Below are positions 12,809 to 27,580 of a stretch of DNA of 32,000 nucleotides, one piece after another (within the stretch, counting starts at the first letter, position 1; every line of letters begins with the position of its first letter). The notes under the pieces were generated by a model, which was not told the DNA's origin, searched no databases, and was given only the letters and a program-made list of their open reading frames with translations. This DNA comes from an uncultured Lentisphaeria bacterium (GTDB lineage: Bacteria > Verrucomicrobiota > Lentisphaeria > JABSQK01 > JAJFLO01), in the NCBI GenBank assembly GCA_951812855.1, contig OX638337.1:30001-62000 (forward strand), read 5' to 3'. The translations under genes were made by a program, and so were the position numbers.

Positions 12809-14164
12809 TTAGTCTTTTCCCCTGGTGTCGTTTATTATGTCCTGTAATAATCGGATCGTTTTATCAGTGGCACCTCTGTTTTTATCAACAATAGATTTTG
12901 CTTTTTCACCGAATATTAATCGTTTATCAGGATTCTCTATCAGGTCTTGAATCGCGTGGTGTAATTCTGTCTCATTATTAACCTCAATACATGCATTCTC
13001 TGATTTAAATAATTTAACAACATCTCTAAAATTATACATGTGCGGGCCAAATAAAATTGGTTTTCCAAACAATGCAGGTTCAATAATGTTATGTCCCCCT
13101 TTATTTTCGGCTAAACTCTTACCGACAAATACGATATCGGACAGATTCAGATAGTGTAACATTTCTCCCGTGGCATTTACGATCAGAATTTTAGTCCTGT
13201 TTGTATCATGGTCTGTCTGGACAGCAGTGTTATTGGTATTGAGTCTGTTGCCTAATTCTGAAGCAAGCACATAGTCACTATTCTCTTCGTTTAAGAGTTG
13301 TTCTATTTCAGCGGTTCTTTCGATATGTCTCGGGATAATAACAAGCAATAAATCCGGATATGTTTCAGCGAGTGATTTTAGCACGTGGATCATTATTTTT
13401 TCTTCGCCGGGATGGGTGCTTGCTGCTGTAAAAACGATCCGGTTTGAATTATTGCATAGATGATCTATAAACCTCGGTGCATCAGGCTTGGACAGAGACG
13501 CAATTTGATCAAACTTCATTGTATTGCAGACAACAATTTTATCCGGACGCTTAGAAATCAATGCGATTCGCCTGGCATCCTCTTTTGTTTGAGTGCAAAT
13601 GACAGTAAATTTTGCAAAAATATGTTTGAAAAAAAAACGATATTTTTGATATCCTTTAGCTGAATTATCAGACATTCGACAATTGACGATGGCTGTATCA
13701 ATATTTTTTGCAGCGGCAGTTGTTATGAGATTAGGCCAGATTTCAACTTCAAAAATAATAACCATGACAGGTTTTATGATGCTCAAAGCACGCCTGGTGA
13801 ATATGAAAAAATCCAATGGAAAATAGATCGGTATTATTCGGTCATTTTGTTGCCTTCCGGCAATGGATTGTCCGGTGCTTGTGGTTGAAGATAATATAAA
13901 TTGTACGTCGTTATCCCGTTCGCACCATTCATTTATAAAGGTTAGTGCTGCAACTGTTTCACCAACGCTGACCGCATGAATCCAAATGGGTTTTCTGCAT
14001 GCGTTAAATTGCCGTTTTTTCCCCGATGAATACACACTGAATCGTTCCCAAAATCCATTTTGATAATTCCCTCTGCGTTTCAATCTGTAAAAAAATACGG
14101 GGAGATATAGCAAAAAAAGGATTGGAAACAGGACATTGTATATAAGTAATATAAATTTTACCAT
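12809..14164 (-). CDS. waaA: 3-deoxy-D-manno-octulosonic acid (Kdo) transferase
   Basis: N-terminal membrane anchor and the characteristic WIHAVSVGE motif. 451 aa. Confidence 0.88.
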   Translation of the reverse strand: MVKFILLIYNVLFPILFLLYLPVFFYRLKRRGNYQNGFWERFSVYSSGKKRQFNACRKPIWIHAVSVGETVAALTFINEWCERDNDVQFILSSTTSTGQSIAGRQQNDRIIPIYFPLDFFIFTRRALSIIKPVMVIIFEVEIWPNLITTAAAKNIDTAIVNCRMSDNSAKGYQKYRFFFKHIFAKFTVICTQTKEDARRIALISKRPDKIVVCNTMKFDQIASLSKPDAPRFIDHLCNNSNRIVFTAASTHPGEEKIMIHVLKSLAETYPDLLLVIIPRHIERTAEIEQLLNEENSDYVLASELGNRLNTNNTAVQTDHDTNRTKILIVNATGEMLHYLNLSDIVFVGKSLAENKGGHNIIEPALFGKPILFGPHMYNFRDVVKLFKSENACIEVNNETELHHAIQDLIENPDKRLIFGEKAKSIVDKNRGATDKTIRLLQDIINDTRGKD

Positions 14165-15000
14165 ATCGTTTTGTGCTTAATGGATTTTAATGACGGAAGT
14201 TTCTTTCGAACATTCATAATTTCTTTTTTTGAAAGTGTTTCACTAATATAACCTTCATTTTCAGCCAGTGAGGAAATTACTGAACCCCAGGGATCAATTA
14301 CCATTGAATGACCGTAGGCTCTGGTATTTATGCTCTCATTTAAACCGCATTGATTGACACCTGCAACATAATACTGATTTTCAATTGCCCTGGCTTTCAG
14401 TAACACTTCCCAGTGTGATTTTCCTGTGAATTGAGTAAATTCAGACGTACAGAGCACAAGATCAGCACCTGTATACGCACGAAACAGTTCGGGGAATCTT
14501 AAATCATAACATATGGTTAAGCCTATGTTCCAGTCATTAACCGAAATTAACATCGGTTTATCTCCTGTATCAAATAATGCACGTTCGTTAATGACAGCCG
14601 TATCATAATTGAGTTGGAACAAGTGAATTTTTTTGTAATTTCCAATAACTCTTCCAGATGCATCGATCACTAATGAGGTATTATACAGCTTCCCGGAATA
14701 AAAAATGGGCAGTCCTCCCCAGACAATGGTTGATTGATACCGAATAGAGAATTCACTTAATTCATCAATAAAGAAATTTTCTTCTTTTGCAAATGTTTTA
14801 ATTTCCGCATAATTTCCACGAAATAATGTATGTTCCGGAAAAATGATCAGATCACACTCTTGATTCCGGCATTCTTCTAATAAACCAATTATTATAGATC
14901 GATTATGCCGGCAGCTGTTTGTTGATGATAATTGGGACAAAAAAATTGATAATAAACTCTGACCGGATTCATCTTTTGCCTTTGTTAAATGTGTTGTCAT
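14158..15000 (-). CDS. Carbon-nitrogen hydrolase (nitrilase superfamily)
   Basis: E-K-C triad contexts IIFPEH, YKKIHLF and LTICYDLRFPE. Overlaps waaA by 7 nt. Confidence 0.8.
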   Translation of the reverse strand: MTTHLTKAKDESGQSLLSIFLSQLSSTNSCRHNRSIIIGLLEECRNQECDLIIFPEHTLFRGNYAEIKTFAKEENFFIDELSEFSIRYQSTIVWGGLPIFYSGKLYNTSLVIDASGRVIGNYKKIHLFQLNYDTAVINERALFDTGDKPMLISVNDWNIGLTICYDLRFPELFRAYTGADLVLCTSEFTQFTGKSHWEVLLKARAIENQYYVAGVNQCGLNESINTRAYGHSMVIDPWGSVISSLAENEGYISETLSKKEIMNVRKKLPSLKSIKHKTIW

Positions 15001-15113: not shown

Positions 15114-16088
15114 GTGAAATACTACATTAAAAAAGCTAAATCTGTTATTCAGACTGAAATTGACGGTTTAAATACTGTCAAAGATAAATTGGATGACTCT
15201 TTTGTTCAGTTGGTTGATTTATGCCTGAAAACACGTAGAGATGATGGCAAAATCGTGATTTGCGGTGTTGGAAAAAGTGGTTATGTCGGAAGAAAAATAG
15301 CAGCTACACTGTCCAGCACGGGATCGCCGGCAGCATTTCTCCATCCCGTAGAAGCAATGCACGGAGATCTTGGAATCGTTCATCCAAAAGATATTCTGCT
15401 GGCATTCAGTTACAGTGGTGAAACCCATGAACTCCTTACAGTATTACCTGCAATAAAACGATTTAATATACCCATTGTTGCGGTTACCGGAAATCCTGAG
15501 TCAACATTGGCGAACCTGTGTGATTTAGTTGTGTCAGCATCAATCCCCAGGGAAGCCTGCCCATTTAATCAGGCACCCACCACTTCGACGACATGTCAAA
15601 TGGCTTTAGGGGATGCACTTGCGATGGTATTATTAGATACACTGGATTTTACATCTGAAGACTATGGCAAATTTCATCCCGGAGGTTCCATTGGTCTTGC
15701 TGTTACATTGATTGTGAAAGATATGATGCGCCAGTCTGAGCGCTTTGCCGTAACCACAGGAGATACAACGGTCAAAGATGCGTTGGTTTTGATGACCAGG
15801 TGCCGATCCGGTTCTGTCGTGATTATTGATGATAATAAAAAATTATGCGGAATCTTTACAGACGGAGACCTAAGACGGCATATTCAAAAAGAACTGAATA
15901 TATTCGACCATCCTGTCAGTGAGGTTATGACTGAAAATCCAATTTCAATCAACGAAAATATACTTGCCATAGAAATTCTAAAAATATTGGAAACTCGGGA
16001 AATCGATGATATCCCTGTCGTTAACAACAATGACGATGTTGTCGGATTGGTTGATATTCAGGATTTAGCCAAATATAAGCTGATGTAA
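15114..16088 (+). CDS. kdsD: Arabinose-5-phosphate isomerase (SIS domain + tandem CBS domains)
   Basis: SIS motif VICGVGKSGYVGRKIAATLSSTG, followed by a CBS pair. GTG start. Confidence 0.88.
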   Translation: MKYYIKKAKSVIQTEIDGLNTVKDKLDDSFVQLVDLCLKTRRDDGKIVICGVGKSGYVGRKIAATLSSTGSPAAFLHPVEAMHGDLGIVHPKDILLAFSYSGETHELLTVLPAIKRFNIPIVAVTGNPESTLANLCDLVVSASIPREACPFNQAPTTSTTCQMALGDALAMVLLDTLDFTSEDYGKFHPGGSIGLAVTLIVKDMMRQSERFAVTTGDTTVKDALVLMTRCRSGSVVIIDDNKKLCGIFTDGDLRRHIQKELNIFDHPVSEVMTENPISINENILAIEILKILETREIDDIPVVNNNDDVVGLVDIQDLAKYKLM

Positions 16089-16188
16089 ATCCATGGTTGT
16101 AATCTCACCCTTTATGCCTTCTGTACCCGGGACAATTCAACCGTTGAAAAACAGATCAGAAGAACTATCCCGAGTCAAACCAAGGACA

Positions 16189-16214
16189 CCCCTTTGAAAA
16201 TCCCCTTTGAAAAT
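16189..16214. repeat. Perfect 13-bp tandem duplication (CCCCTTTGAAAAT x2)
   Basis: Read directly: 16189-16201 is identical to 16202-16214. It is bracketed by the 7-bp inverted repeat AGGACAC (16183-16189) / GTGTCCT (16218-16224). It sits at the left edge of the island and abuts the DUF262-HNH stop codon. Confidence 0.95.
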
Positions 16215-16222
16215 CGAGTGTC

Positions 16223-17308
16223 CTATTCGCCTGATTTTCGACGGTTGCAATCCTTGCATAGCATCTGGCAGTTTTCGGCAATGGTCTTTCCGCCCTTGGT
16301 CCACGGCGTGATATGGTCGGCTTCCATTTCTTCTAATTTAAAATGCTCATTGCACCTCGCACAGGTGCCCTTTTTCTGCTCATACGCCTCTCGCTTTTGC
16401 TTATCTGTAAAGGCACGGACGTTTAGATGTTTTTCTTCTCCTGTCAGCAGATAGGCATAAATGCCTTTTTTACTGGTTACATCCTCATCTTCCATCAATT
16501 TTGCAACCCGTTTTTCTAAGGCATCCGGGTCGTATGTTTCATCTTTGTAGGTATTGTAAAAGTCTCCCCACCGCAAGCCTTTCATTTCTTTTTTACGGTA
16601 ATTCGGGAAAGTCTTTTGCGTCCACTCAATAACCCTTTGAAAATAATCCCACAGTTTTTTTGCATCGGACTCGTGTTGATGTGTACCCATATACTCTTCT
16701 ATCGTGCCATTGCTGAACCATTTGATGGCTGTCTCCAGATAGTCCTGTCTGATGGGGCTGCCGCTTAGGTATTTGTTACCCACTGGATAAGCAGGACAAT
16801 CCGTTTTGCTGAAATATCTTTTGGCATCGGTTACCCAAGAACCATGATAAACCGCATTTCGCAATTCCTGGTCGGTCAGTTTTTCGCCAGCGATATTGAT
16901 AGTCTTGAACCATTCCAGTTTTTCGCTGTCGGTGCCAGTGCATTGATAAATCATTAATTTATAATTTAAGATTTTTTCTTGTTCGTCATCTTGTAAACTA
17001 TAAAAATATCTTTTTTCAACAGAAAAAACACCCTTTACATATCGGCAAATGGAGACCGTGCGCTGTTGGCCGTCAATAATCTCAAAATTGTCATCACCAC
17101 GCACGGCCCAATACATGACATTTAATGGAAAGCCTTTGTTTATGGTGTCAATAACGGCATCGCGCTGTGCCTCTTTATAGATAAACTCACGCTGATACGG
17201 CGGGCGAATATCCAGCTTGCTGCCGTAGCCCTTAGCGCCGTTTTCCTGGTTGTCTTCATAGCCGTCTGCCAATTCGCGAACGGTTATCTCTTTGAGTGTT
17301 ATATCCAT
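16223..17308 (-). CDS. DUF262 (ParB/GmrSD-N-like, DGQQR motif) - HNH endonuclease fusion; candidate type IV / modification-dependent restriction nuclease
   Basis: IRPPYQREF and IIDGQQRT are the DUF262 signatures. The C-terminus CARCN...ADHITPWTKGG...NCQMLCKDCNRRK is a classical HNH zinc-finger nuclease motif. Confidence 0.8.
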   Translation of the reverse strand: MDITLKEITVRELADGYEDNQENGAKGYGSKLDIRPPYQREFIYKEAQRDAVIDTINKGFPLNVMYWAVRGDDNFEIIDGQQRTVSICRYVKGVFSVEKRYFYSLQDDEQEKILNYKLMIYQCTGTDSEKLEWFKTINIAGEKLTDQELRNAVYHGSWVTDAKRYFSKTDCPAYPVGNKYLSGSPIRQDYLETAIKWFSNGTIEEYMGTHQHESDAKKLWDYFQRVIEWTQKTFPNYRKKEMKGLRWGDFYNTYKDETYDPDALEKRVAKLMEDEDVTSKKGIYAYLLTGEEKHLNVRAFTDKQKREAYEQKKGTCARCNEHFKLEEMEADHITPWTKGGKTIAENCQMLCKDCNRRKSGE

Positions 17309-17441
17309 TTATTTGCCGCTCTTTTTTTGATAGTGTGCTTGACTTTATATCATTGCCAAATTCAGTTCAATTGTTGTTTCACTGCTGGTATCGTCCGCAA
17401 ACTCCTGATTCAAAATATCGGCGATTAACTCGCCACTCTGC

Positions 17442-17834
17442 TCAACGAGCTGCTGTTTTTTTGCGATCTTGTTTTTCAGTTGCAAGCGTTTTTGCCACTT
17501 TACTAAACTCTCTTACTTTGGCAAAGGTCTCAATAATCTGAAGCGTGGCTTTGGTCGCCTCTTTTGATTTGAGAATGGTTGCCAGCATATACAAGCCCTT
17601 TTCGGTAAATGCCTTGGGAAGTTTTACTTTTCCTCCCTTTGAAGTCGCATTTTGCGACTTCAAAGTATTTGTGTCCTTTTGATGAGATAAAATCACATTT
17701 TCTGATTGTATAGCAAGCGCAGGCCGTTCTGTAGTGGTTTTGTAGCTTGAATCGGGGCATGTAGGACAGCGTAGATAAAGGCAAGAATCTGTTCTGGGGC
17801 GGACGATTTTGCGGGTAAGGTTTTTTATTAGCAC
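17442..17834 (-). pseudogene. Chimeric remnant: C-terminal half of an ORF6N/KilA-N-type DNA-binding domain preceded by unrelated sequence
   Basis: SKGGKVKLPKAFTEKGLYMLATILKSKEATKATLQIIETFAKVRE matches the distal half of ORF6N-type domains, but the usual N-terminal half is absent. The ORF ends just after an A7 run (T7 on the plus strand at 17456-17462). A7 to A6 would extend it by about 36 codons, to 17345. A different frame at 17753-17797 encodes a fragment of another protein family. Confidence 0.5.
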
Positions 17835-17861
17835 GGAAATCGGGTGTGAAATTTGCGGTTT

Positions 17862-18794
17862 TTAGACGGAGAAATCTAAGTAGTAGGTTTCATTGTCTAT
17901 CTTGTATATTGTAACTTCTTTGCGACCGTATCTTTCTAAGTCTTCTACTCTGACCCGCTCCCCATATTCTACGCCTAATCTATTTCTAAAATATCTACCC
18001 ATAATGCTATTGTTTTCGGTTGTGTGGATGGCCTTTCCTTGCTCTTGTGCAACAACGCATATCATCGAAATATCATCGTCAGTTAGGATGGTAAATGGCA
18101 CTCCCAAAGGAGGTAAAATATTCCTCTCACGCTCTTCTATGGGAACAGGAATGTAAGCTTGGTCTAGGTTTCTGCCTTTTCTTTGCCCCCAATTTAGCCC
18201 AGCCTTTTCATGTACTTTGCCTTCCCGATTTTTTTGAGTCATGTAAAGAGGAAGGGTAACGCTAGGCAATTCTTTATTGCTTATTGCAGGATAATCTATT
18301 TTCTCTGGAATGGAAAAATGTTGATCTAGTTCGTGGGCATTACAAAATGCAGTTCTTTTGCGTGTTTTCTCTATAAATTTGAATGCTTTTTGCGGGTCTG
18401 TTATCGCCAAAACTTCTTGTTGTTGGGAGGGTAAAAATCCGTTGCTTGTGTAGTTCGCAGATCCAACATAGGCCGCGATAGGATTTTTTTCATTACTAAA
18501 AAGATAAACTTTGGCATGAACAGATGGCGAGCAAATTAAATAGTCGCAAACAAAATTTTTGTATATTTTGCATACTTGACAGAATCCTAAATGCTTTGGT
18601 CTGTCTATAGCGTTTTTTAAGGACATGCCAATCGTTAAGTGTATTTTTGCCTCGATATTATTGTTCTTAAGTTCTAGTAAATGTTTATCTGCCATAGATG
18701 GAGACGCATAACCAGAGACGATATCTAGTTTTGTGGCTTCATTGTTAAGAAATGGTTCAAGTAAAATTTTTGTAAATAAGTTTTCACTTAACAT
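17862..18794 (-). CDS. Type II restriction endonuclease, NgoFVII/BfiI-like (N-terminal PLD/HKD nuclease + C-terminal DNA-recognition domain)
   Basis: PLD-type HxK...GSxN motif in VHAKVYLFSNEKNPIAAYVGSANYT. The C-terminal LNWGQRKGRNLDQAYIPV...TDDD...MGRYFRNRLGV...YGR pattern is typical of the NgoFVII C-terminal domain. The start overlaps the C5-MTase stop by 7 nt. Confidence 0.78.
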   Translation of the reverse strand: MLSENLFTKILLEPFLNNEATKLDIVSGYASPSMADKHLLELKNNNIEAKIHLTIGMSLKNAIDRPKHLGFCQVCKIYKNFVCDYLICSPSVHAKVYLFSNEKNPIAAYVGSANYTSNGFLPSQQQEVLAITDPQKAFKFIEKTRKRTAFCNAHELDQHFSIPEKIDYPAISNKELPSVTLPLYMTQKNREGKVHEKAGLNWGQRKGRNLDQAYIPVPIEERERNILPPLGVPFTILTDDDISMICVVAQEQGKAIHTTENNSIMGRYFRNRLGVEYGERVRVEDLERYGRKEVTIYKIDNETYYLDFSV

Positions 18795-19888
18795 GGTGCG
18801 ATGCCGTATTTTTGCAGTGCCGTGAGGATTGCCCGGCAGATGACTTCTACGCCTTTTGGTGGCACTGCCATGCCGATTTGGCGGCGGACACTTTCTTTAC
18901 CACCGATAAATTCAAAGTTGTCGGGAAAAGTTTGTAGCCTTGCCCTTTCTCTATTTGTCAACGCTCTCGGTTCTTGCCAATGATAAACATGCGTTCCACC
19001 TCCACCAGAGCCTGTGACAGTGTAGGCAGGTTTGGATGGATCAAGTCTTTTGTAGATTTGACTGATAGCCGCCTTGCTTTTTAATTTTAATTTTAATTTT
19101 TCAGGAAGTTGGGCATTGAATGCGTTTTGTCCTGGTTTTATATGTTTTAGCCTTTCTATGACTTGCTTTGACTGCGTTGTAAAATCGTGGTTTAGGGCAT
19201 TGGGTTGTAGAGGCGGTGATTCTAGTGCTTCCTTACAGGTTATTATTTTCGTTTCGTTCGGTTGTGGGTGTTTGAAATCTATTTTTATGTCGTCTCTAAA
19301 TCCGACAATTATGATGCGATGGCGGCGTTGCGGCACGCCGTAATACTCAAATTTGTAAAGATTAGTGTGAATGTTGTAGCCACATTCTTGGATAGCACAA
19401 CAGATCCTTTCAAATGTGTCTTTGTTGTCGGCAGAGAGAAGGCCGCCGACATTTTCGGCTATAAAAAATTGAGGCTGGAAATGTTCAAGTGCTCTTACGC
19501 TGTGCATATACAAGCTCCCGTATTTTCCTTGAATACCTTTTTGCTCGCCTACTACGCTGAAATCGTTACATGGAAAGCCGAAAAACAAACCGTCAATAGG
19601 GTTAAAATCATCAAACTCTAGCGTGGAAATGTCAGCACATCGAACTTTACTGTTCTCTATTTTGATGTTTTTTCGGAAAGTTTCGCAAGAGTCTTTATGG
19701 TAGTCACAAGCCCAGATGTGGGACATTTTATAGGACTTGTATTGTGCTTTTTCTGCGCCTAATGCCATTCCACCAGGCCCACTGAATAGCTCGCCTATTT
19801 TGAAGGTGTTTTTGACAGATTGTTCTTGACTGCCTTGATAATCTTCAGTTAGTTCTTTGATTGAAATTTCTTTAAGCGTTATTTCCAT
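18788..19888 (-). CDS. DNA (cytosine-5)-methyltransferase
   Basis: All canonical C5-MTase motifs occur in order: FSGPGG (I), GFPCNDFS (IV), ENV in FIAENVGGL (VI), QRRHRIIIVG (VIII), TFPDNFEF, RQIGMAVPP (X). It has an unusual N-terminal extension of about 30 aa. Confidence 0.92.
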   Translation of the reverse strand: MEITLKEISIKELTEDYQGSQEQSVKNTFKIGELFSGPGGMALGAEKAQYKSYKMSHIWACDYHKDSCETFRKNIKIENSKVRCADISTLEFDDFNPIDGLFFGFPCNDFSVVGEQKGIQGKYGSLYMHSVRALEHFQPQFFIAENVGGLLSADNKDTFERICCAIQECGYNIHTNLYKFEYYGVPQRRHRIIIVGFRDDIKIDFKHPQPNETKIITCKEALESPPLQPNALNHDFTTQSKQVIERLKHIKPGQNAFNAQLPEKLKLKLKSKAAISQIYKRLDPSKPAYTVTGSGGGGTHVYHWQEPRALTNRERARLQTFPDNFEFIGGKESVRRQIGMAVPPKGVEVICRAILTALQKYGIAPC

Positions 19889-19891
19889 TTT

Positions 19892-20499
19892 TTATATTTT
19901 TTGATTTTGAGACTCATCTTTTTTTAAGGTAAAACTCCCTTTTGTCATTCTATCAGTAAAGTAATTGCCTTTTAATTCGTTATCTGCTAACTCCAAAGTA
20001 ACGGTGCCATAATGTTTGATTAAATCATCTGCTATATTGTCTGGATTATTAAAATAATTATAAATAAGCTCATCTTTATTATTCTCTGCTCGGATAAGAC
20101 AATTAATAACCACACTTCTGGATTGTTTAAAATTAGCGTTGATAGTAATATCAGTTAAAGTTTGTTTAATAGTAATCTTTACTTTAAATTTTTTGTTTTC
20201 AACATCTTCCTTATAAGTGCTTCTTCCTTATAAGTGCTTCTTCCTTCTCCGCTCCATTTTCCGCTAAAGTTTGGGATTTGTTCTTTGATGATAGGTAGAT
20301 GGAAAAACCACTCTGACAAGCAATTAAAAATAACAAAATGATTTATCAACAAACTAAAAGTAAAAATAGTTAAAGCCGTTGATATATCGTTTAAAAAAAT
20401 ATTTAAAAACCCAGTTAAGCAAAAAGTAACTAAAAAAGACAGAACAAGGGAGAGTGTGAAAGCATAATACTCTACTTTAAAATTTTTGAGATATTTCAT
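19892..20499 (-). pseudogene. CBASS effector, 2TM + beta-strand-rich C-terminal domain (Cap15 / S-2TM-beta-like), frameshifted by a 17-bp tandem duplication
   Basis: The two track ORFs 20179..20499 (two hydrophobic helices, then FSGKWSGEGRSTYKE) and 19892..20113 are joined into one 591-nt (196-aa) ORF with no stop if one copy of the 17-bp repeat is removed. The start overlaps the CD-NTase stop as ATGA. Confidence 0.7.
20207..20240. repeat. Perfect 17-bp tandem duplication (TTCCTTATAAGTGCTTC x2; 6 further matching nt follow)
   Basis: Read directly: 20207-20223 is identical to 20224-20240, and 20241-20246 (TTCCTT) repeats the unit start. 17 is not a multiple of 3. Confidence 0.95.
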
Positions 20500-21353
20500 C
20501 CTGTTACATACTCAATGACTTTTTTGAGAAATTGATGGCAATCTGTTAAATTCCATTTTGTGCTTTCATCACCAAATAAAGGTTGAATCTCATTCTGACA
20601 TTTTAAATTTTTTAAATCATTATCTCGTAACCAATTTAAACAATTAGCCAATAGAGAAGTAAAATAACTTTCATTAAATTTATCATTTGGCACATTGTAA
20701 ATTAAACATTCTACAAAGTAGGAAGGTGCTAAGCTTTCATCTATCCAATTTTCTTTAATCATCTGCCTTTTAATATTTTTAAAAATTCGCACCATCTTTT
20801 TATAATTTCCTGTTCTGCTATTCTTTTCTTCTCCATTTTGTTTATGGATTTTAGGATAGTTAATAATCTCACCTTTTGAGGATTGTATTTTTATTCCCTC
20901 ATAGTATTGCTTTTCTCCACGGTCATAATGATTTTTGTATTGAAAACAAGGTACTAAATCTACATTTTGCCAATGCTCACCTCTTAAATGTAATTCAATA
21001 CATTTATTTTTTTCTTTGTAAGAAATTCTTTCTCTGTTTAAAACACTTTTAATTTCATTTCTGAGTGCTTCTTGAGTGTAACTGCTTGGATTGTTATAAA
21101 TACTTGGATTGTAGTTATAGTTATAGTAAAAAGTCTCATTAAACTGTAAAATAATATCTATGTCACCATCAGCCCAGATATTCGTATTATTGGCAACAGA
21201 TCCTTGTAAATAAATTTCAAAATTATTTGAATTATTAAAACAAACACCTCTAAAAATATCCTTTACTTTATCGTAAGTTGCTGTATTTTTATTGAGCTGA
21301 ACACGGTTTGCCCAAGTTGCTAATTGTTGTTCTTGTATTGTTATATTTGTCAT
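20496..21353 (-). CDS. cGAS/DncV-like nucleotidyltransferase (CD-NTase, SMODS-type) of a type I CBASS
   Basis: Pol-beta NTase signature LQGSVANNTNIWADGDIDIIL (GS...DxD). Third acidic residue context NVDLVPCF. SMODS-like APSYFVECLIYNVP. Followed by a translationally coupled 2TM effector gene. Confidence 0.8.
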   Translation of the reverse strand: MTNITIQEQQLATWANRVQLNKNTATYDKVKDIFRGVCFNNSNNFEIYLQGSVANNTNIWADGDIDIILQFNETFYYNYNYNPSIYNNPSSYTQEALRNEIKSVLNRERISYKEKNKCIELHLRGEHWQNVDLVPCFQYKNHYDRGEKQYYEGIKIQSSKGEIINYPKIHKQNGEEKNSRTGNYKKMVRIFKNIKRQMIKENWIDESLAPSYFVECLIYNVPNDKFNESYFTSLLANCLNWLRDNDLKNLKCQNEIQPLFGDESTKWNLTDCHQFLKKVIEYVTG

Positions 21354-21358
21354 TATAA

Positions 21359-21449
21359 CCTCTTGTTTTTGATGATGATTCTAAAATATGGAGGATCGGG
21401 AGAAAATTTTCCACAAATGCAAGCAAGATCTTAGATGTCAGTGATTTTC
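21359..21449. repeat. 91-bp direct repeat, copy A (leader of the CBASS operon)
   Basis: Gap-free alignment with 23034-23124 at a constant offset of 1675 gives 84/91 identical by my base-by-base count. Contains the 10-bp perfect palindrome GAAAATTTTC at 21402-21411. Confidence 0.9.
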
Positions 21450-21454
21450 ATTTT

Positions 21455-21934
21455 TTAGTCTTTATTATATTTAGAAAGATCAATATCTTTCCGTTTTAGC
21501 ATTTCAAAAGTATCGACACAATCAATATCAAATTCTTTACAAATATTTGGTATTGAAGCTTTTTTAGCACCTTTCCCTAAAAAATTTTCGTGAGTGACAA
21601 TTACAATATTATATTCTTTAGCAACACACACTAACAAATAATCAGCTACATTTAGAAATTTACCAGCCTGTTCTGAGCTATAGTTTTTATAAATATAGTC
21701 AGATAACATTTGTTGGTTAGTTAATGGTTTATCATAAGAAAAAATTTTTACCGCCTTAACAAGATTCTCTAAAGTATCTTTATCTTTACCTTTGCGGATT
21801 TCGTCTTTAACTTCTTGTAAAGTAAAAATATCTTCTTCTTCTTTTAAGTATTCCCAAAAACTGGAAACTATCTTTTCTTGATAATATCGTCTATAAGCCT
21901 CAATGAATACGTTTGTATCTAAAAGATATCTCAT
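21455..21934 (-). CDS. DUF4411 PIN-like nuclease-fold protein
   Basis: The N-terminus MRYLLDTNVFIEAYRRYY...FWEYL is the PIN-like / DUF4411 signature. The ATGA overlap with the upstream ImmA gene suggests translational coupling. Confidence 0.75.
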   Translation of the reverse strand: MRYLLDTNVFIEAYRRYYQEKIVSSFWEYLKEEEDIFTLQEVKDEIRKGKDKDTLENLVKAVKIFSYDKPLTNQQMLSDYIYKNYSSEQAGKFLNVADYLLVCVAKEYNIVIVTHENFLGKGAKKASIPNICKEFDIDCVDTFEMLKRKDIDLSKYNKD

Positions 21935-23031
21935 AAAGGCAAGCCAAGTTGGCGATAATATTTATTAAAAGTCTCTCCCTTCAGCCCCGTAAGACTATAG
22001 GCATCTCTGTAAAGAGTTTCGCCTGCTAAAGTAGAATGAACTACACGAAGTAAAAAAGTCTCTCCGCCTGCTTTAAATGGGGCAGTACGATAATAATCGC
22101 CTCCACTGCCTTTAGATTTTATTCTTTGTATATTTTCTATACAATCCTTCCATTGCCTTTGAAATTCATATTCTCTAATTAAACTGGATTGTTTTGCTTT
22201 TATCAAAACAACAAAAACACTTATTTTAAATTTTTTTGCTATCCCCTCTATATTGTCAATATTAAAATATTCTTTTTTTAATTCCTTTGCAGGTAATAAA
22301 ATTTCTGATGCTATCTTATTACATGTTTTCTCCGTTTGTAAATGATATGTTCCGTCTAAAGCACTTTCATTTAAAAATAAGTGTGCCAGTTCATGGATAA
22401 GAGTAAAAATTTGACTGGATTTATAATCCCTGCCATTAATAAAAATTGCAGGAGCATATTCATCAAACAAACAAAATCCCTTAAATTCCTCTCTGTCCAA
22501 TCCTCTGCTGGTATTGCTCCCCACCACTCCATTTCTTATAATTAAAAATTCTTTGTCATCGAGTTTCTTTATTAAATTACTTAAAAAATCTTCTTGTGTC
22601 CTGCTCTCACTTCGTAATTTATCTATATCTAATAATCTTTTTATTTCAGTAATTATTTCTTTTTCACCTGTATATTTATAAGAAAAAATTTTATCCTCGC
22701 CATCTTGTATCTTTTGTTCTCTTAACCAATTTTGTTTTCTTTGAGAATCATAAATAGTTTCTAAAAGGTTAATACCTGGTTTTTCTAATTCTTTATTGTT
22801 TATTGTTCTAAAATCAGGAATAGGCAATTCTTCTTTTGGTGGCTCGGAAAGGAATAAATAACCATAAGGAACATAAAATTTTTCAGCTATTTTTTTTATT
22901 TGTTTTTCGGTAGGTTGAGACTTTCCTTCTTCCCAATCAGGATATTTACGAGAAGCAATTTTTTTTACAGCCTCTTCTAAACTGAGTTCAGCCCGCTCTC
23001 TTGCCCATTTTAATAATTCTGGATTAACCAT
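21931..23031 (-). CDS. XRE-type HTH fused to an ImmA/IrrE (COG2856) zinc metallopeptidase
   Basis: N-terminal LKWARERAELSLEEAVKKI is HTH-like. HEXXH zinc site in LIHELAHLFL. 366 aa. Confidence 0.8.
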   Translation of the reverse strand: MVNPELLKWARERAELSLEEAVKKIASRKYPDWEEGKSQPTEKQIKKIAEKFYVPYGYLFLSEPPKEELPIPDFRTINNKELEKPGINLLETIYDSQRKQNWLREQKIQDGEDKIFSYKYTGEKEIITEIKRLLDIDKLRSESRTQEDFLSNLIKKLDDKEFLIIRNGVVGSNTSRGLDREEFKGFCLFDEYAPAIFINGRDYKSSQIFTLIHELAHLFLNESALDGTYHLQTEKTCNKIASEILLPAKELKKEYFNIDNIEGIAKKFKISVFVVLIKAKQSSLIREYEFQRQWKDCIENIQRIKSKGSGGDYYRTAPFKAGGETFLLRVVHSTLAGETLYRDAYSLTGLKGETFNKYYRQLGLPL

Positions 23032-23033
23032 AG

Positions 23034-23124
23034 CCTTTTGTTTTTGATGATGATTCTAAAATCAGGAGGATTGGGAGAAAATTTTCCACAAATGCAAGCA
23101 ACATCTTAGATGTCAGTAATTCTC
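23034..23124. repeat. 91-bp direct repeat, copy B (leader of the ImmA-DUF4411 operon; overlaps the last 4 codons of the GHKL gene)
   Basis: See copy A. The palindrome GAAAATTTTC lies at 23077-23086. Confidence 0.9.
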
Positions 23125-24987
23125 TTTCTTAATAATATCTAAAAAAGTTTTATTACGTGCTCGAGCGTTAGAGATAACCTCTTCTGCAGATATTACATAA
23201 AGGTACAGAGATAATTTTTCATAGTATTTGAAATAAATCTTTTCCCTGGTTGAGAATAACAATTTGAAATCATCATTCTTTAGTTTTTGCTCAAAATCAT
23301 CACCTATATTGGTAATCAAGTAATACCAAACGTTGTTTAACTTTTCTGCTCCTTTGAAGCTGTTAGCATATTCTCTTATCTCCTCTAATCCAGCGAATTT
23401 CTTTTTTCCATCTATATTTAAAGCCTTGAGTTCTATAATGACCGCATTATAATTGCCTTCTTCTTTCTGGAAAAATATTGAAATGTCCGGTCTGCCCCGG
23501 TCTTGATTATTTGATTGAGGGAATATTTTTTTTAAACTTTCTTTTATACTTTTTTCGCTGGCTGCATAACTATAACTCATAAATTTATCGTCAATAAGCC
23601 AAATATTATTTTCTGCAGGACCAAGATATTTTTTACTTCCTTTTTCGGTATCTGAACCTCTCTCCATCAATAAATTATGCAGCACCTTTTCCTTTCCGTT
23701 GTGCTTTTGACTTAAAGTTTCTAATTCTGATATTATTTTATCTCGCATTAAAATATATTCTGTCAGTTCTTGACCTGCTAATGTGCTTGCTTTTTTAAGC
23801 AATTCATTACTTCTATATTTTTTACCTTCCACTTCCTTTCTGAAAGATTGTTTTTCTTTTAAAAATTTTTCTTCGGCTTGTTTAATAATATTTTCTTGTT
23901 TGATCAAGCCTCCTAAATAATTTATATCTCCAAGATAATCTACTAAATGTAAATGTTTACGTTTAATTCTTTTAATTATTTCTTTATACTCGTCTTCTAA
24001 TTCTGGAAATTTTTCTTTTAAAATAGTTGCAATCTCCTGATCTAATCCTTGATTGATCATCTCCCAGGAAAAATCGCCAAACAATGTATCTTTTGCTTGA
24101 TTAGGGTTCATGGAAAAATCATTCCTCTCATTATCTACTTTATCATCTAAAAAATCAGAGGATAATAAAAAGATGATTTGACATTCATCTATCGGATTAA
24201 TGGAAAAATTTTTATTTTTATCTTTAAACCTACAAACTGTTCGGGAATTAGCACAGTAGAATCCTCGCATTTTGTTCAAATCCTTTAAACTCAATTCTTC
24301 TATGGAGTAATTTAGAATAAATTCAACATCCTGTTCTCTTGTATCTTTTATGTTGAATGAATGTTCTTCAAAAGTCGGTAAATCGGACGTTTTAATATTA
24401 GCTTCGTCATTGCTGTCTTTATTTTCTAAAGTAATGACAATGTTGGAATCCCTCTTTAAATACAATAACGGCAACAAATGACTATATAGTTTATCTCTCA
24501 CTGCTTGAATGGAATAAAAACTATTTATCTTTGGGTCAATACCATTGAATTCTATTGTAGTTTTATTGTTTTTTATATTGTTTTTTTCAACTTTTGTTAT
24601 ATGCTTTTCTTCTTCAAATTTTTCGCTAAAATTTATCTTGACGAGTTTTTTCTCTTCTTTTACTAAACTTTCTATCTTAATATCTGAGAAAATTTTTAAG
24701 AAGGAAATTCTTCCTATTCCTTTACATCCTAAATCTATTTTTTCTTTCGTGCCGTATTCACAAAAAGACTCAATATTTTTATCTGTAAAACCCTTGCCAT
24801 TATCAATGACAGAAAGTTTTTCTAAACAGGTTTTTTCTTGCTGTAATGATAATTCATTATAATATTCTATACGGATTTTTATATCAGTTGCTTCTGCTTG
24901 TATGGAATTAGTAACTGCCTCTTGCAGAACGGTCAACGGGTTAACTTTTTTAAGATTAGAAACCATTCTAGGGAGATTGATTTTCAT
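23113..24987 (-). CDS. GHKL (HATPase_c_3 / MORC-MutL-like) ATPase fused to a C-terminal PD-(D/E)xK nuclease-like domain
   Basis: Bergerat-fold motifs occur in order: N-box EAVTNSIQA, G1 VIDNGKGF, G2 GCKGIGRISF. A long Lys/Glu-rich middle region follows. C-terminal GRPDISIFF then about 18 aa then VIIELK gives a PD...ExK arrangement. Confidence 0.7.
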   Translation of the reverse strand: MKINLPRMVSNLKKVNPLTVLQEAVTNSIQAEATDIKIRIEYYNELSLQQEKTCLEKLSVIDNGKGFTDKNIESFCEYGTKEKIDLGCKGIGRISFLKIFSDIKIESLVKEEKKLVKINFSEKFEEEKHITKVEKNNIKNNKTTIEFNGIDPKINSFYSIQAVRDKLYSHLLPLLYLKRDSNIVITLENKDSNDEANIKTSDLPTFEEHSFNIKDTREQDVEFILNYSIEELSLKDLNKMRGFYCANSRTVCRFKDKNKNFSINPIDECQIIFLLSSDFLDDKVDNERNDFSMNPNQAKDTLFGDFSWEMINQGLDQEIATILKEKFPELEDEYKEIIKRIKRKHLHLVDYLGDINYLGGLIKQENIIKQAEEKFLKEKQSFRKEVEGKKYRSNELLKKASTLAGQELTEYILMRDKIISELETLSQKHNGKEKVLHNLLMERGSDTEKGSKKYLGPAENNIWLIDDKFMSYSYAASEKSIKESLKKIFPQSNNQDRGRPDISIFFQKEEGNYNAVIIELKALNIDGKKKFAGLEEIREYANSFKGAEKLNNVWYYLITNIGDDFEQKLKNDDFKLLFSTREKIYFKYYEKLSLYLYVISAEEVISNARARNKTFLDIIKKENY

Positions 24988-25040
24988 AATTTATAACCTT
25001 TTTTGCTGGCACAGTTCAATGATAAATGGCGCAATGTCTT

Positions 25041-26036
25041 TCATTTTTGCGAGTCTCTGTTGCGGATGATGATTCTATTATAGATATTACGTCCATTTAT
25101 TTTTGTTAAGCATTCATACCCAATCCATCTTGCTGAGTTTGCTATCCCCAAAATCTCAAACTGATCCGGATTATATTTATCCATAAAGGTAATGGGTACG
25201 CCCATAGCACCGGCGTAGTCCATAGGGATTTCTTTTACCTTACTCACTTCAATGGCATCGTAGTTATCGTATGTTGGATAGTCGGCAGGCGTGTATTTTT
25301 TGTAGAGGATAAGTTCTTCATGACGTTTTTGGTGGTCTAAGTTGGTAAACCAGTTGATACTTCCTTTACTAAAATACTTCGTGCCGTTTTCTATTTTCTT
25401 CCGTGATTCGGTTTTTATATCGTAGTTGTCAGGGACGCGAAACCATTTTGTGCCGCCGTTATCATAACCGAGCCAGATTTTATTTTCTTTTATGAGCTTA
25501 AAAATTTCCTTGTAAGTGATTGCATTTTGATCTCCGATTATCACAAACTTCTTATCGTATTCAACAAGCTGCGACACATATTCACGAAACAGTGAGAACG
25601 GCGGGTTGGTAACGACAATATCGGCTTGCTCTAACAGCTTAATTGCCTCTGGACTGCGAAAATCGCCATCGCCTTTGAAGGCTTTAACACCTATCTCCTC
25701 CGGATCAGGTACTTTGTTGTGGTTTTTGTCGCCTTCGTATTCCAAATAGATGGCCTGTTCACAGTCGTGCTGACTGAATAAATCCATATTTTGATTTTTA
25801 TAGCAGGCGGTGATGAGTTTTTTTAAGCCGAATGCCTCAAACCCGTATGAAAAATAATGAAAAAAACCGCTGATACGCGGGTCATCGCAGTTGCAGTAAA
25901 CCGTTTTGTTTTTGAAATGATGCCAGTAGTGTTTCAGCTCATTTTCAATATCGGACAGTTGCGTATAAAACTCATCTTTTTTGGTGTTTTTGGCGGCGTG
26001 TAGATTGGTGTTTTTAGTTGCCTTGCTCATGGTCAT
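25041..26036 (-). CDS. N6-adenine DNA methyltransferase, EcoRI-methylase-like family
   Basis: Catalytic motif IV VVTNPPFSLFREY (NPPF). N-terminal KDEFYTQLSDIE...VYCNCDDP, and C-terminal YDNYDAIEVSK...MGVPITFMDKYNP, as I recall for this family. Confidence 0.78.
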   Translation of the reverse strand: MTMSKATKNTNLHAAKNTKKDEFYTQLSDIENELKHYWHHFKNKTVYCNCDDPRISGFFHYFSYGFEAFGLKKLITACYKNQNMDLFSQHDCEQAIYLEYEGDKNHNKVPDPEEIGVKAFKGDGDFRSPEAIKLLEQADIVVTNPPFSLFREYVSQLVEYDKKFVIIGDQNAITYKEIFKLIKENKIWLGYDNGGTKWFRVPDNYDIKTESRKKIENGTKYFSKGSINWFTNLDHQKRHEELILYKKYTPADYPTYDNYDAIEVSKVKEIPMDYAGAMGVPITFMDKYNPDQFEILGIANSARWIGYECLTKINGRNIYNRIIIRNRDSQK

Positions 26037-26470: not shown

Positions 26471-27580
26471 TTATAGATAGTGTCTGTCGACTCGGTTACC
26501 AATCGAACAAATAATCTCGTAGGATATCGTATTTTTTGCATCGGCCCACTCGTTGACTGGTATTGAATTGCCCAGACATTCGACTTGGTCTCCAATCGCT
26601 GCTTCCGGGACATGAGAAATTTGAATCGTTGTATAATCCATTGAAATTCTGCCTAAAACGGGACATCGCTTTGCCTGGAGATAAAATGCACCATTATTAG
26701 AAATGGCGATTGGTACACCATCAGCATAGCCGGCTGAAACCGTTCCCACTCGAGTGGGGCAGGGTGTTTTGTAGGTTTTGCCATAGCCGATTTCGGTTTG
26801 CGGGGGTAATATTCGTATTGCGACTAAGCGGGCTTTAACGGTGAAAACCGGGGATAGTTTAATGGACTGAGCACCCTGAAAATCAAATACGCCATATAAA
26901 TTGATTCCGGTTCTCACCATAGAAAATGGGGGTTTACAGGATTCCGGAATATTATTAATACCATCGCTATTGGCTATATGAATCCATTTAAAAGTAATAT
27001 TTTTTTGGTCGAGTAATTCAAGGAGTGTCTTTATTTTTTTTATTTGTTCCAGAGAAAAATCCCGATTATTATATGCCTGGGGAAAATGAGTATAGATTCC
27101 AGTGCAGTTTAAGCCGGGTAATTTAATTGTATTCTCAATTATTTTTTGACTGTCATTGTATAAAATTCCCAACCGCCCCATTCCGGTATCTATAAGATAA
27201 TGGCATTCGAGAATTTTGTTCTGCCTTACAGCCTCACTGCTTAATTTTACGGCAGTTTGCAGATCTGTAATTGGTGCAATAAACCCCATTTCCACGATCA
27301 TTGGAATTTCATCATCAATGATACCTCCGAGCAGTTGTATCGGTTTACCAAAATGAGAAATTGATATTGCTTCTTTAACATCAGCAACCCCGAAAGAATA
27401 AATTCCAGTGTCGGACAGTGCCTTTGCAATTTCAACTGCTCCGAGACCGTAGGCGTTTGCTTTCAGTACTGCCATTACTTTCAAAGGCGATACTTTATCT
27501 GATATTAGGTCAAAATTTGATTTAATTTTGTTTAGGCTGATTTCCACCCAAACTCGTGAAGCAGCAGTTTTATTTGTCAT
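26471..27580 (-). CDS. alr: Alanine racemase
   Basis: PLP-lysine motif AVLKANAYGLG. 369 aa. Overlaps nth by 4 nt. Confidence 0.9.
   Translation of the reverse strand: MTNKTAASRVWVEISLNKIKSNFDLISDKVSPLKVMAVLKANAYGLGAVEIAKALSDTGIYSFGVADVKEAISISHFGKPIQLLGGIIDDEIPMIVEMGFIAPITDLQTAVKLSSEAVRQNKILECHYLIDTGMGRLGILYNDSQKIIENTIKLPGLNCTGIYTHFPQAYNNRDFSLEQIKKIKTLLELLDQKNITFKWIHIANSDGINNIPESCKPPFSMVRTGINLYGVFDFQGAQSIKLSPVFTVKARLVAIRILPPQTEIGYGKTYKTPCPTRVGTVSAGYADGVPIAISNNGAFYLQAKRCPVLGRISMDYTTIQISHVPEAAIGDQVECLGNSIPVNEWADAKNTISYEIICSIGNRVDRHYL

Follow-up and report, generated by a model that had tools for sequence, protein, structure and literature searches.

The window, as the whole 32-kb stretch of DNA analysed here is called, carries on its minus strand four genes tightly packed head to tail, which encode a CD-NTase (cyclase), a Cap15 effector interrupted by a tandem duplication, a C5 cytosine DNA methyltransferase and an NgoFVII-type restriction endonuclease (Table 1). 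The first two form a two-gene type I CBASS, an anti-phage system, lodged in a defence island on the chromosome of an uncultured diderm bacterium whose genome measures about 1.95 Mb.

Table 1. Features of the CBASS operon and the surrounding defence island (positions in the window).
Feature	Position	Strand	Remarks
kpsF-like gene	15114-16088		island border
Perfect 13-nt tandem repeat CCCCTTTGAAAAT	16189-16215		2.1 copies; in the short gap between the kpsF-like core gene and the first island gene (GmrSD-N/HNH)
NgoFVII-type restriction endonuclease	17862..18794	minus	overlaps the methylase gene by 7 nt; last in the cyclase-cap15-methylase-endonuclease string
C5 cytosine DNA methyltransferase	18788..19888	minus	
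cap15 3' remainder, out of frame	19892..20204	minus	encodes strands 2-8 of the cyclic-dinucleotide receptor barrel
73-aa GTG ORF	19892..20113	minus	within the cap15 3' remainder
cap15 5' fragment	20179..20499	minus	106 aa: native residues 1-92, then 14 out-of-frame residues and a stop
Tandem duplication, first unit	20205-20221		TCTTCCTTATAAGTGCT
Tandem duplication, second unit	20222-20238		TCTTCCTTATAAGTGCT
Tandem duplication, partial unit	20239-20246		TCTTCCTT
CD-NTase (cyclase)	20496..21353	minus	285 aa, clade E-like, intact; stop overlaps the cap15 start by 4 nt (ATGA)
Putative leader/promoter region of the CBASS operon	21355..21445	minus	~90% identical to 23030-23120, upstream of the HTH-M78/DUF4411 operon
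alr	26471-27580		island border
Island contents			GmrSD-N/HNH enzyme; ORF6N protein; NgoFVII-type RM system; CBASS; HTH-M78 (RmrA/CapP-like) + DUF4411 PIN pair; 624-aa HATPase protein; EcoRI-type methylase

The CBASS operon and its neighbours

An earlier note on this DNA had described the locus as a CBASS with an intact cyclase, and both points hold. The cyclase matches the PADLOC model PDLC00788 over positions 2-293 of 297 (2.3e-74), its best PDB relative is CdnE 6E0K, and it aligns over its full length with both 6E0K and 6E0M (9e-40), with QGS, DGDID and VDLV falling at the catalytic GS / DxD / D positions of 6E0K. This full-length alignment and the retained catalytic positions liken it to the clade-E CD-NTases (CdnE; PDB 6E0K, 6E0M, 7X4F), an assignment drawn from best matches only and with a predicted product. 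Cyclic dinucleotides of the uracil-containing or di-pyrimidine kind are the products of CdnE enzymes (PMC10442399), and ligands of this class have also been reported for Cap15 (PMC10419184). In the genome_contigs collection the cyclase has no relative. Pfam and PADLOC found neither Cap2/Cap3 (E1/E2/JAB) nor HORMA/TRIP13 genes among the neighbours, and the system is therefore assigned to type I. As with known Cap15 effectors of type I CBASS, the cap15 gene lies directly downstream of the CD-NTase gene and overlaps it. Panoptes (mCpol + OptE), whose OptE belongs to the same S-2TM-beta effector family and has the same architecture as the effector of the window (PMC12657218), was ruled out as a candidate, the upstream gene being a CD-NTase and not mCpol. 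The two systems differ in sign: its nucleotide keeps OptE off, while Cap15 is switched on by its own, and by the logic of OptE the loss of the receptor could be lethal instead of silent.

The methylase gene is probably co-transcribed with cap15, since only 3 nt separate its start from the cap15 stop and no obvious Shine-Dalgarno sequence precedes it. A cap15 stop placed 290 nt earlier could lower expression of the restriction-modification genes through lost translational coupling or polarity. Promoter and terminator scanning returned sites no more numerous than in shuffled sequence, and we therefore infer the operon structure and polarity. One weak promoter-like site lies inside the 3' end of cap15 (19975-19947), in a scan that overall did no better than shuffles.

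Upstream of the cyclase, the intergenic space is taken up entirely by an element of some 90 nt, as it is by a second copy upstream of the HTH-M78 + DUF4411 PIN operon (21355-21445 and 23030-23120, minus strand). The two copies share without mismatch a 29-nt core, TTGCTTGCATTTGTGGAAAATTTTCTCCC, with 0 such matches expected by chance. The element matches nothing in Rfam, shows no significant RNA folding and contains no clear palindrome. A shared promoter or operator is one possible role, through which CBASS would be co-regulated in a manner like CapH/CapP.

Elsewhere in the island, the 13-nt repeat beside the kpsF-like gene may mark the island boundary. In the region 23113-26036, an adenine methylase of the EcoRI type (331 aa; PF13651, 5e-132), for which that region holds no recognisable EcoRI-like endonuclease partner, is followed by the 624-aa GHKL/HATPase_c_3 protein, which has no PADLOC match. 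Together they could constitute an uncharacterised methylase-linked defence pair. Outside the defence genes, the housekeeping protein OadB finds matches of 77% at most, in MAGs of about 2 Mb labelled 'Thermodesulfobacteriota' and Spirochaetia, and the DNA contains no uptake sequences of the Haemophilus or Neisseria kind.

The cap15 gene and its duplication

Tandem Repeats Finder reports at 20205..20246 a perfect tandem repeat with a period of 17, 2.5 copies, 100% matches and a score of 84, which is the top-scoring tandem array of the window. On the forward strand the array reads ...CAACA, then TCTTCCTTATAAGTGCT TCTTCCTTATAAGTGCT TCTTCCTT, then CTCC..., and its longest perfect tandem self-match is 25 nt, whereas 20 shuffled versions of the window gave 7-11 nt. 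The perfect 17-bp duplication that had been claimed at 20207-20240 is accordingly real by both the program and direct reading; the unit then given, TTCCTTATAAGTGCTTC, describes this repeat in a register offset by two bases, and the repeat reaches 8 nt beyond the extent then stated (TCTTCCTT). These additional 8 nt matter for the mechanism, because two copies of TCTTCCTT, separated by 9 bp, are already present in the one-copy sequence, and the stretch that was duplicated spans exactly from one of these 8-mers to the next. The coding-strand form of this microhomology is AAGGAAGA.

As found, the minus strand reads ...GRSTYKEEALIRKMLKTKNLK*, with the frame shifting after codon 92 and a stop at codon 107. 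Deletion of one copy yields ...GRSTYKEDVENKKFKVKITIKQ..., which stays open to the stop at 19892 and gives 591 nt, or 196 aa, the sizes calculated in the earlier note. Direct reading and translation thus agree with the earlier statements that the protein is truncated just past its two TM helices and that, with one copy removed, the frame runs without a stop into the downstream 73-aa ORF. The 106-aa product keeps TM helices 8-32 and 39-67 plus beta-strand 1 of the eight-strand barrel. In the 3' remainder, gene callers see only the 73-aa ORF, whose GTG lies inside strand 4 (residue 124) and which is left without strands 1-3.

The effector, formerly described as a 2TM CBASS membrane effector, is one indeed, and belongs to the Cap15 family by profile, sequence and structural comparison of the repaired 196-aa protein. 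It matches Pfam PF18153 (Cap15_CD_rec) at 1.8e-25 over profile positions 2-122/122 with residues 74-188, spanning the junction, as well as sixteen PADLOC 2TM effector models, the best of them end to end (3e-31), and by sequence the Yersinia Cap15 of PDB 7N34 (5.6e-5). An AlphaFold model built on 73 homologues (pLDDT 92.6, pTM 0.85) has helices at 8-32 and 39-67 and eight strands spanning residues 80-188, with the duplication junction (residues 92/93) in the beta1-beta2 loop; Kyte-Doolittle analysis places the peak centres of the two N-terminal TM helices near residues 18-28 and 43-52. The top Foldseek match of the model is again 7N34 (target-normalised TM 0.84, rmsd 2.0 A), and three Cap15 chains are its best PDB structural neighbours, with target-normalised TM of 0.80-0.84 and rmsd of 2.0-3.0 A. 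A pair of N-terminal TM helices and a C-terminal eight-strand beta-barrel receptor are thus shared with Cap15 of Yersinia aleksiciae and Escherichia albertii (Duncan-Lowey et al. 2021; PDB 7N34, 7N35), although YaCap15 is only ~21% identical to the repaired protein and the gene in the window, unlike it, is frameshifted.

In the S-2TM-beta family, signalling proceeds through oligomerisation and the 2TM element is obligately fused to the barrel (PMC12657218). This fusion is intact in the one-copy allele and broken after strand 1 in the allele of the window. Oligomerisation makes it conceivable that the separated fragments still interact, and a split cap15 might then work through ribosomal frameshifting, through TM and barrel fragments acting in trans, or as a new or dominant-negative TM-only protein. 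Such residual function is very improbable, given the obligate fusion in the family (PMC12657218), a remaining barrel ORF that starts within strand 4, a site where direct reading finds no slippery heptamer, and the family-wide lengths set out below. In principle, a TM-only fragment could keep some membrane activity.

The repaired protein is a member of a small metagenome-only subclade. Its nearest homologues, 48-50% identical, measure 195-199 aa, are colinear with it, and each follow a CD-NTase of 285-292 aa. Moreover, in the best 149 of the 752 family representatives retrieved by an exhaustive HMMER search, in which lengths were assessed, the median is 197 aa and 137 of the 149 fall within 170-235 aa. 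An N-terminal-only protein of about 106 aa occurs nowhere among these 149 except as the product of the window itself, and no orthologue in this set ends at the same point, an ending that would have spoken against a knock-out. In JGI metagenomes, a gapped DNA pattern across the repeat, with one or two copies allowed, found no match, and a Cap15 alignment search found only three distant loci (28-32% identity).

Two other cap15 genes are disrupted independently, each beside an intact CD-NTase, as seen by an effector-centred homologue search that is blind to broken cyclases. In L085 (Logan SRR32280804, 1177-1765), the T-run ACGGTTTTTTCC has gained one T some five codons away from where the duplication of the window lies, and the gene is split into 100 + 115 aa. 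In L093 (Logan ERR14057423, 942-1517), an in-frame TGA stands at an expected Trp and leaves 61 + 121 aa. Two further short cap15 matches were rejected as disrupted genes, being simply cut by contig ends. A reading of these cases as recurrent effector loss under selection was set aside, about 3 in 150 being an unremarkable pseudogene rate.

One-copy and two-copy alleles

An exact-sequence look-up found the predicted 196-aa protein in a public collection, so that the intact-length protein is real and encoded by a sister strain. The one-copy allele lies on contig ptg000035c (1,941,460 bp) of ENA assembly ERZ18545485 and has exactly 17 nt fewer at the site of 20205..20246; the one-copy locus (L084) also displays the 8-bp microhomology of the ancestral state. 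The same assembly holds the two-copy allele on ptg000694l (27,876 bp), a contig 100% identical to window 10179-30499, and the two-copy allele is found in addition on a 1,947,381-bp contig in NCBI and ENA. Across all three contigs, one with one copy and two with two copies, the cyclase protein is identical, and from window 21503 to 17886, covering cyclase, cap15, methylase and endonuclease, the 17-nt indel is the sole difference between the strains. One copy is taken as ancestral, since all outgroups are colinear with the one-copy form.

These contigs also bear on whether the duplication could be an assembly or consensus artefact of a genome with a single copy. Both allele-carrying contigs may derive from related data sets, which would lend such an error some room. 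Against it stand the presence of the two-copy allele on both the 1,947,381-bp contig and the separate 27,876-bp contig, contig names (ptg...l / ptg...c) that suggest long-read assembly, and the correct resolution of the one-copy allele on another contig of ERZ18545485. Furthermore, long-read consensus errors do not typically take the form of an exact, non-homopolymer insertion of 17 nt bounded by microhomology, which has the signature of slippage. An artefact is accordingly highly unlikely.

Divergence between the two strains is uneven along the island. It amounts to about 0.4% (0.41%) in the housekeeping flanks and to 5.7% in the HATPase and HTH-M78 genes (window 22000-25000 vs L084 5500-8500), where in-frame indels of 9, 6 and 9 nt also separate the strains. 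Over the 6-kb block of CBASS, RM, ORF6N and GmrSD genes (16000-22000), 4 SNPs occur vs 24.5 expected from the flanks (Poisson 4e-7), which suggests that the block was recently exchanged by recombination or that its neighbours are under diversifying selection. From the near-identity of the block it follows that the duplication is younger than the last common ancestor of the block, itself younger than the strain split. Although ERZ18545485 contains both alleles, each belongs to a haplotype of its own, set apart by SNPs at a distance of 1.3 kb and by neighbours 5.7% divergent. SNPs at window 21503 and 21514 are among these differences. Because the alleles are linked to these different haplotypes, the polymorphism is one between strains and not demonstrably one within a clone.

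A separate difference concerns a CN_hydrolase gene, which in L084 (15482-16323; window 14158-15000, indel at 14634) is split by a 1-nt deletion into 150 + 131 aa. The split may reflect either a genuine pseudogene or a consensus error at a homopolymer.

Probable recent loss of the effector and the case for a switch

In its normal state, the system would respond to infection with synthesis of a cyclic dinucleotide by the clade-E CD-NTase, probably one containing uracil, as the relatives of the enzyme suggest. The 196-aa Cap15 would bind this signal, oligomerise and disrupt the inner membrane, and the infected cell would die. Accounts of Cap15 in PMC10419184 and PMC12657218, which draw on Duncan-Lowey 2021, describe a receptor that binds the cyclic dinucleotide and drives an oligomerisation that breaks the membrane. 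With the frame lost after codon 92, the anchor and one beta-strand would be kept and the signal receptor lost. We infer from this that the CBASS of this strain is a null allele, in which the signal is still made and its execution is lost.

The mutation itself would have arisen by replication slippage between two 8-bp direct repeats (AAGGAAGA, 9 bp apart), which duplicated 17 bp. An 8-bp direct repeat 9 bp apart, with a duplicated unit that runs from repeat to repeat, is a textbook footprint of replication slippage. A recent, one-off loss-of-function mutation of a known system, by a duplication known from assemblies, is on this evidence very likely the correct explanation. For direct repeats under 200 bp, PMC7063769, citing Bzymek and Lovett 2001, describes a RecA-independent rearrangement governed by homology and proximity. 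Since the product has 25 bp of perfect in-register homology, its precise deletion should be easier than the forward event; precise reversion by slippage would therefore be mechanistically possible and likelier than the forward duplication.

A rival explanation is a reversible ON/OFF contingency switch, in which a population would toggle its CBASS by gaining and collapsing the 17-bp duplication and so hedge the cost or autoimmunity of an abortive-infection effector against protection from phage. The 2.5 perfect tandem copies offer 25 bp for slippage, and the coexistence in one metagenome of ON and OFF alleles within an otherwise identical operon is a state that a switch would produce too. Precedents exist in S. 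pneumoniae cap3A, where a small in-ORF tandem duplication is described as the off state and its precise loss as the on state (Waite 2001, via PMC11163986), and in R. solanacearum phcA, with duplication off and collapse on (Poussier 2003, via 10.1101/2023.04.27.538605). In those genes, however, switching was watched in culture within a clone, whereas cap15 is seen as two fixed alleles on different haplotypes. A small duplication in S. aureus agrA, AV3, showed no detectable reversion (PMC6686034), and no report of CBASS phase variation by duplication and collapse was found in the literature searched.

The site itself further argues against such toggling. The ancestral sequence has only the 8-bp microhomology, of a kind that is common: the window contains 36 direct repeats that measure 8 bp or more and are spaced 8-30 bp (about one per kb), and this operon alone has five. 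In homologues L085-L087 the microhomology is not present, and the intact cap15 allele has no conserved standing hypermutable repeat tract such as defines a contingency locus. In addition, the haplotypes that bear the alleles can be told apart, the window haplotype has two copies on both of its contigs, and a 3-copy allele was not seen. A switch of this kind is consequently unlikely. The more specific proposal that the duplication is the OFF state of a bet-hedging device, from which Cap15 is regained by collapse when phage pressure returns, and whose duplication might also affect the RM genes downstream by way of polarity, is likewise unlikely. The evidence as a whole leans against an evolved switch.

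Recent loss of function thus remains the preferred reading. Neutral loss is its simplest form and a third option omitted in the earlier note, which had offered selection against autoimmunity and a reversible switch. Relaxed selection or a mild cost of the toxic effector is favoured as the reason for which the allele became fixed, the two being inseparable. The case is a clean, ordinary gene knock-out, and a genetic switch is not demonstrated. Nor does it add a new mechanism, CBASS with Cap15 and slippage duplications being well known and pseudogenised defence genes common. Its value lies in being a natural and well-documented example of the loss of a costly, suicide-type immune gene, caught early, while intact and broken alleles still share one community and stand one mutation apart. 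Such a matched pair of alleles offers a convenient way to weigh what a CBASS effector costs against what it brings, and it equally suits the question of whether small duplications serve as reversible off-switches for defence genes.
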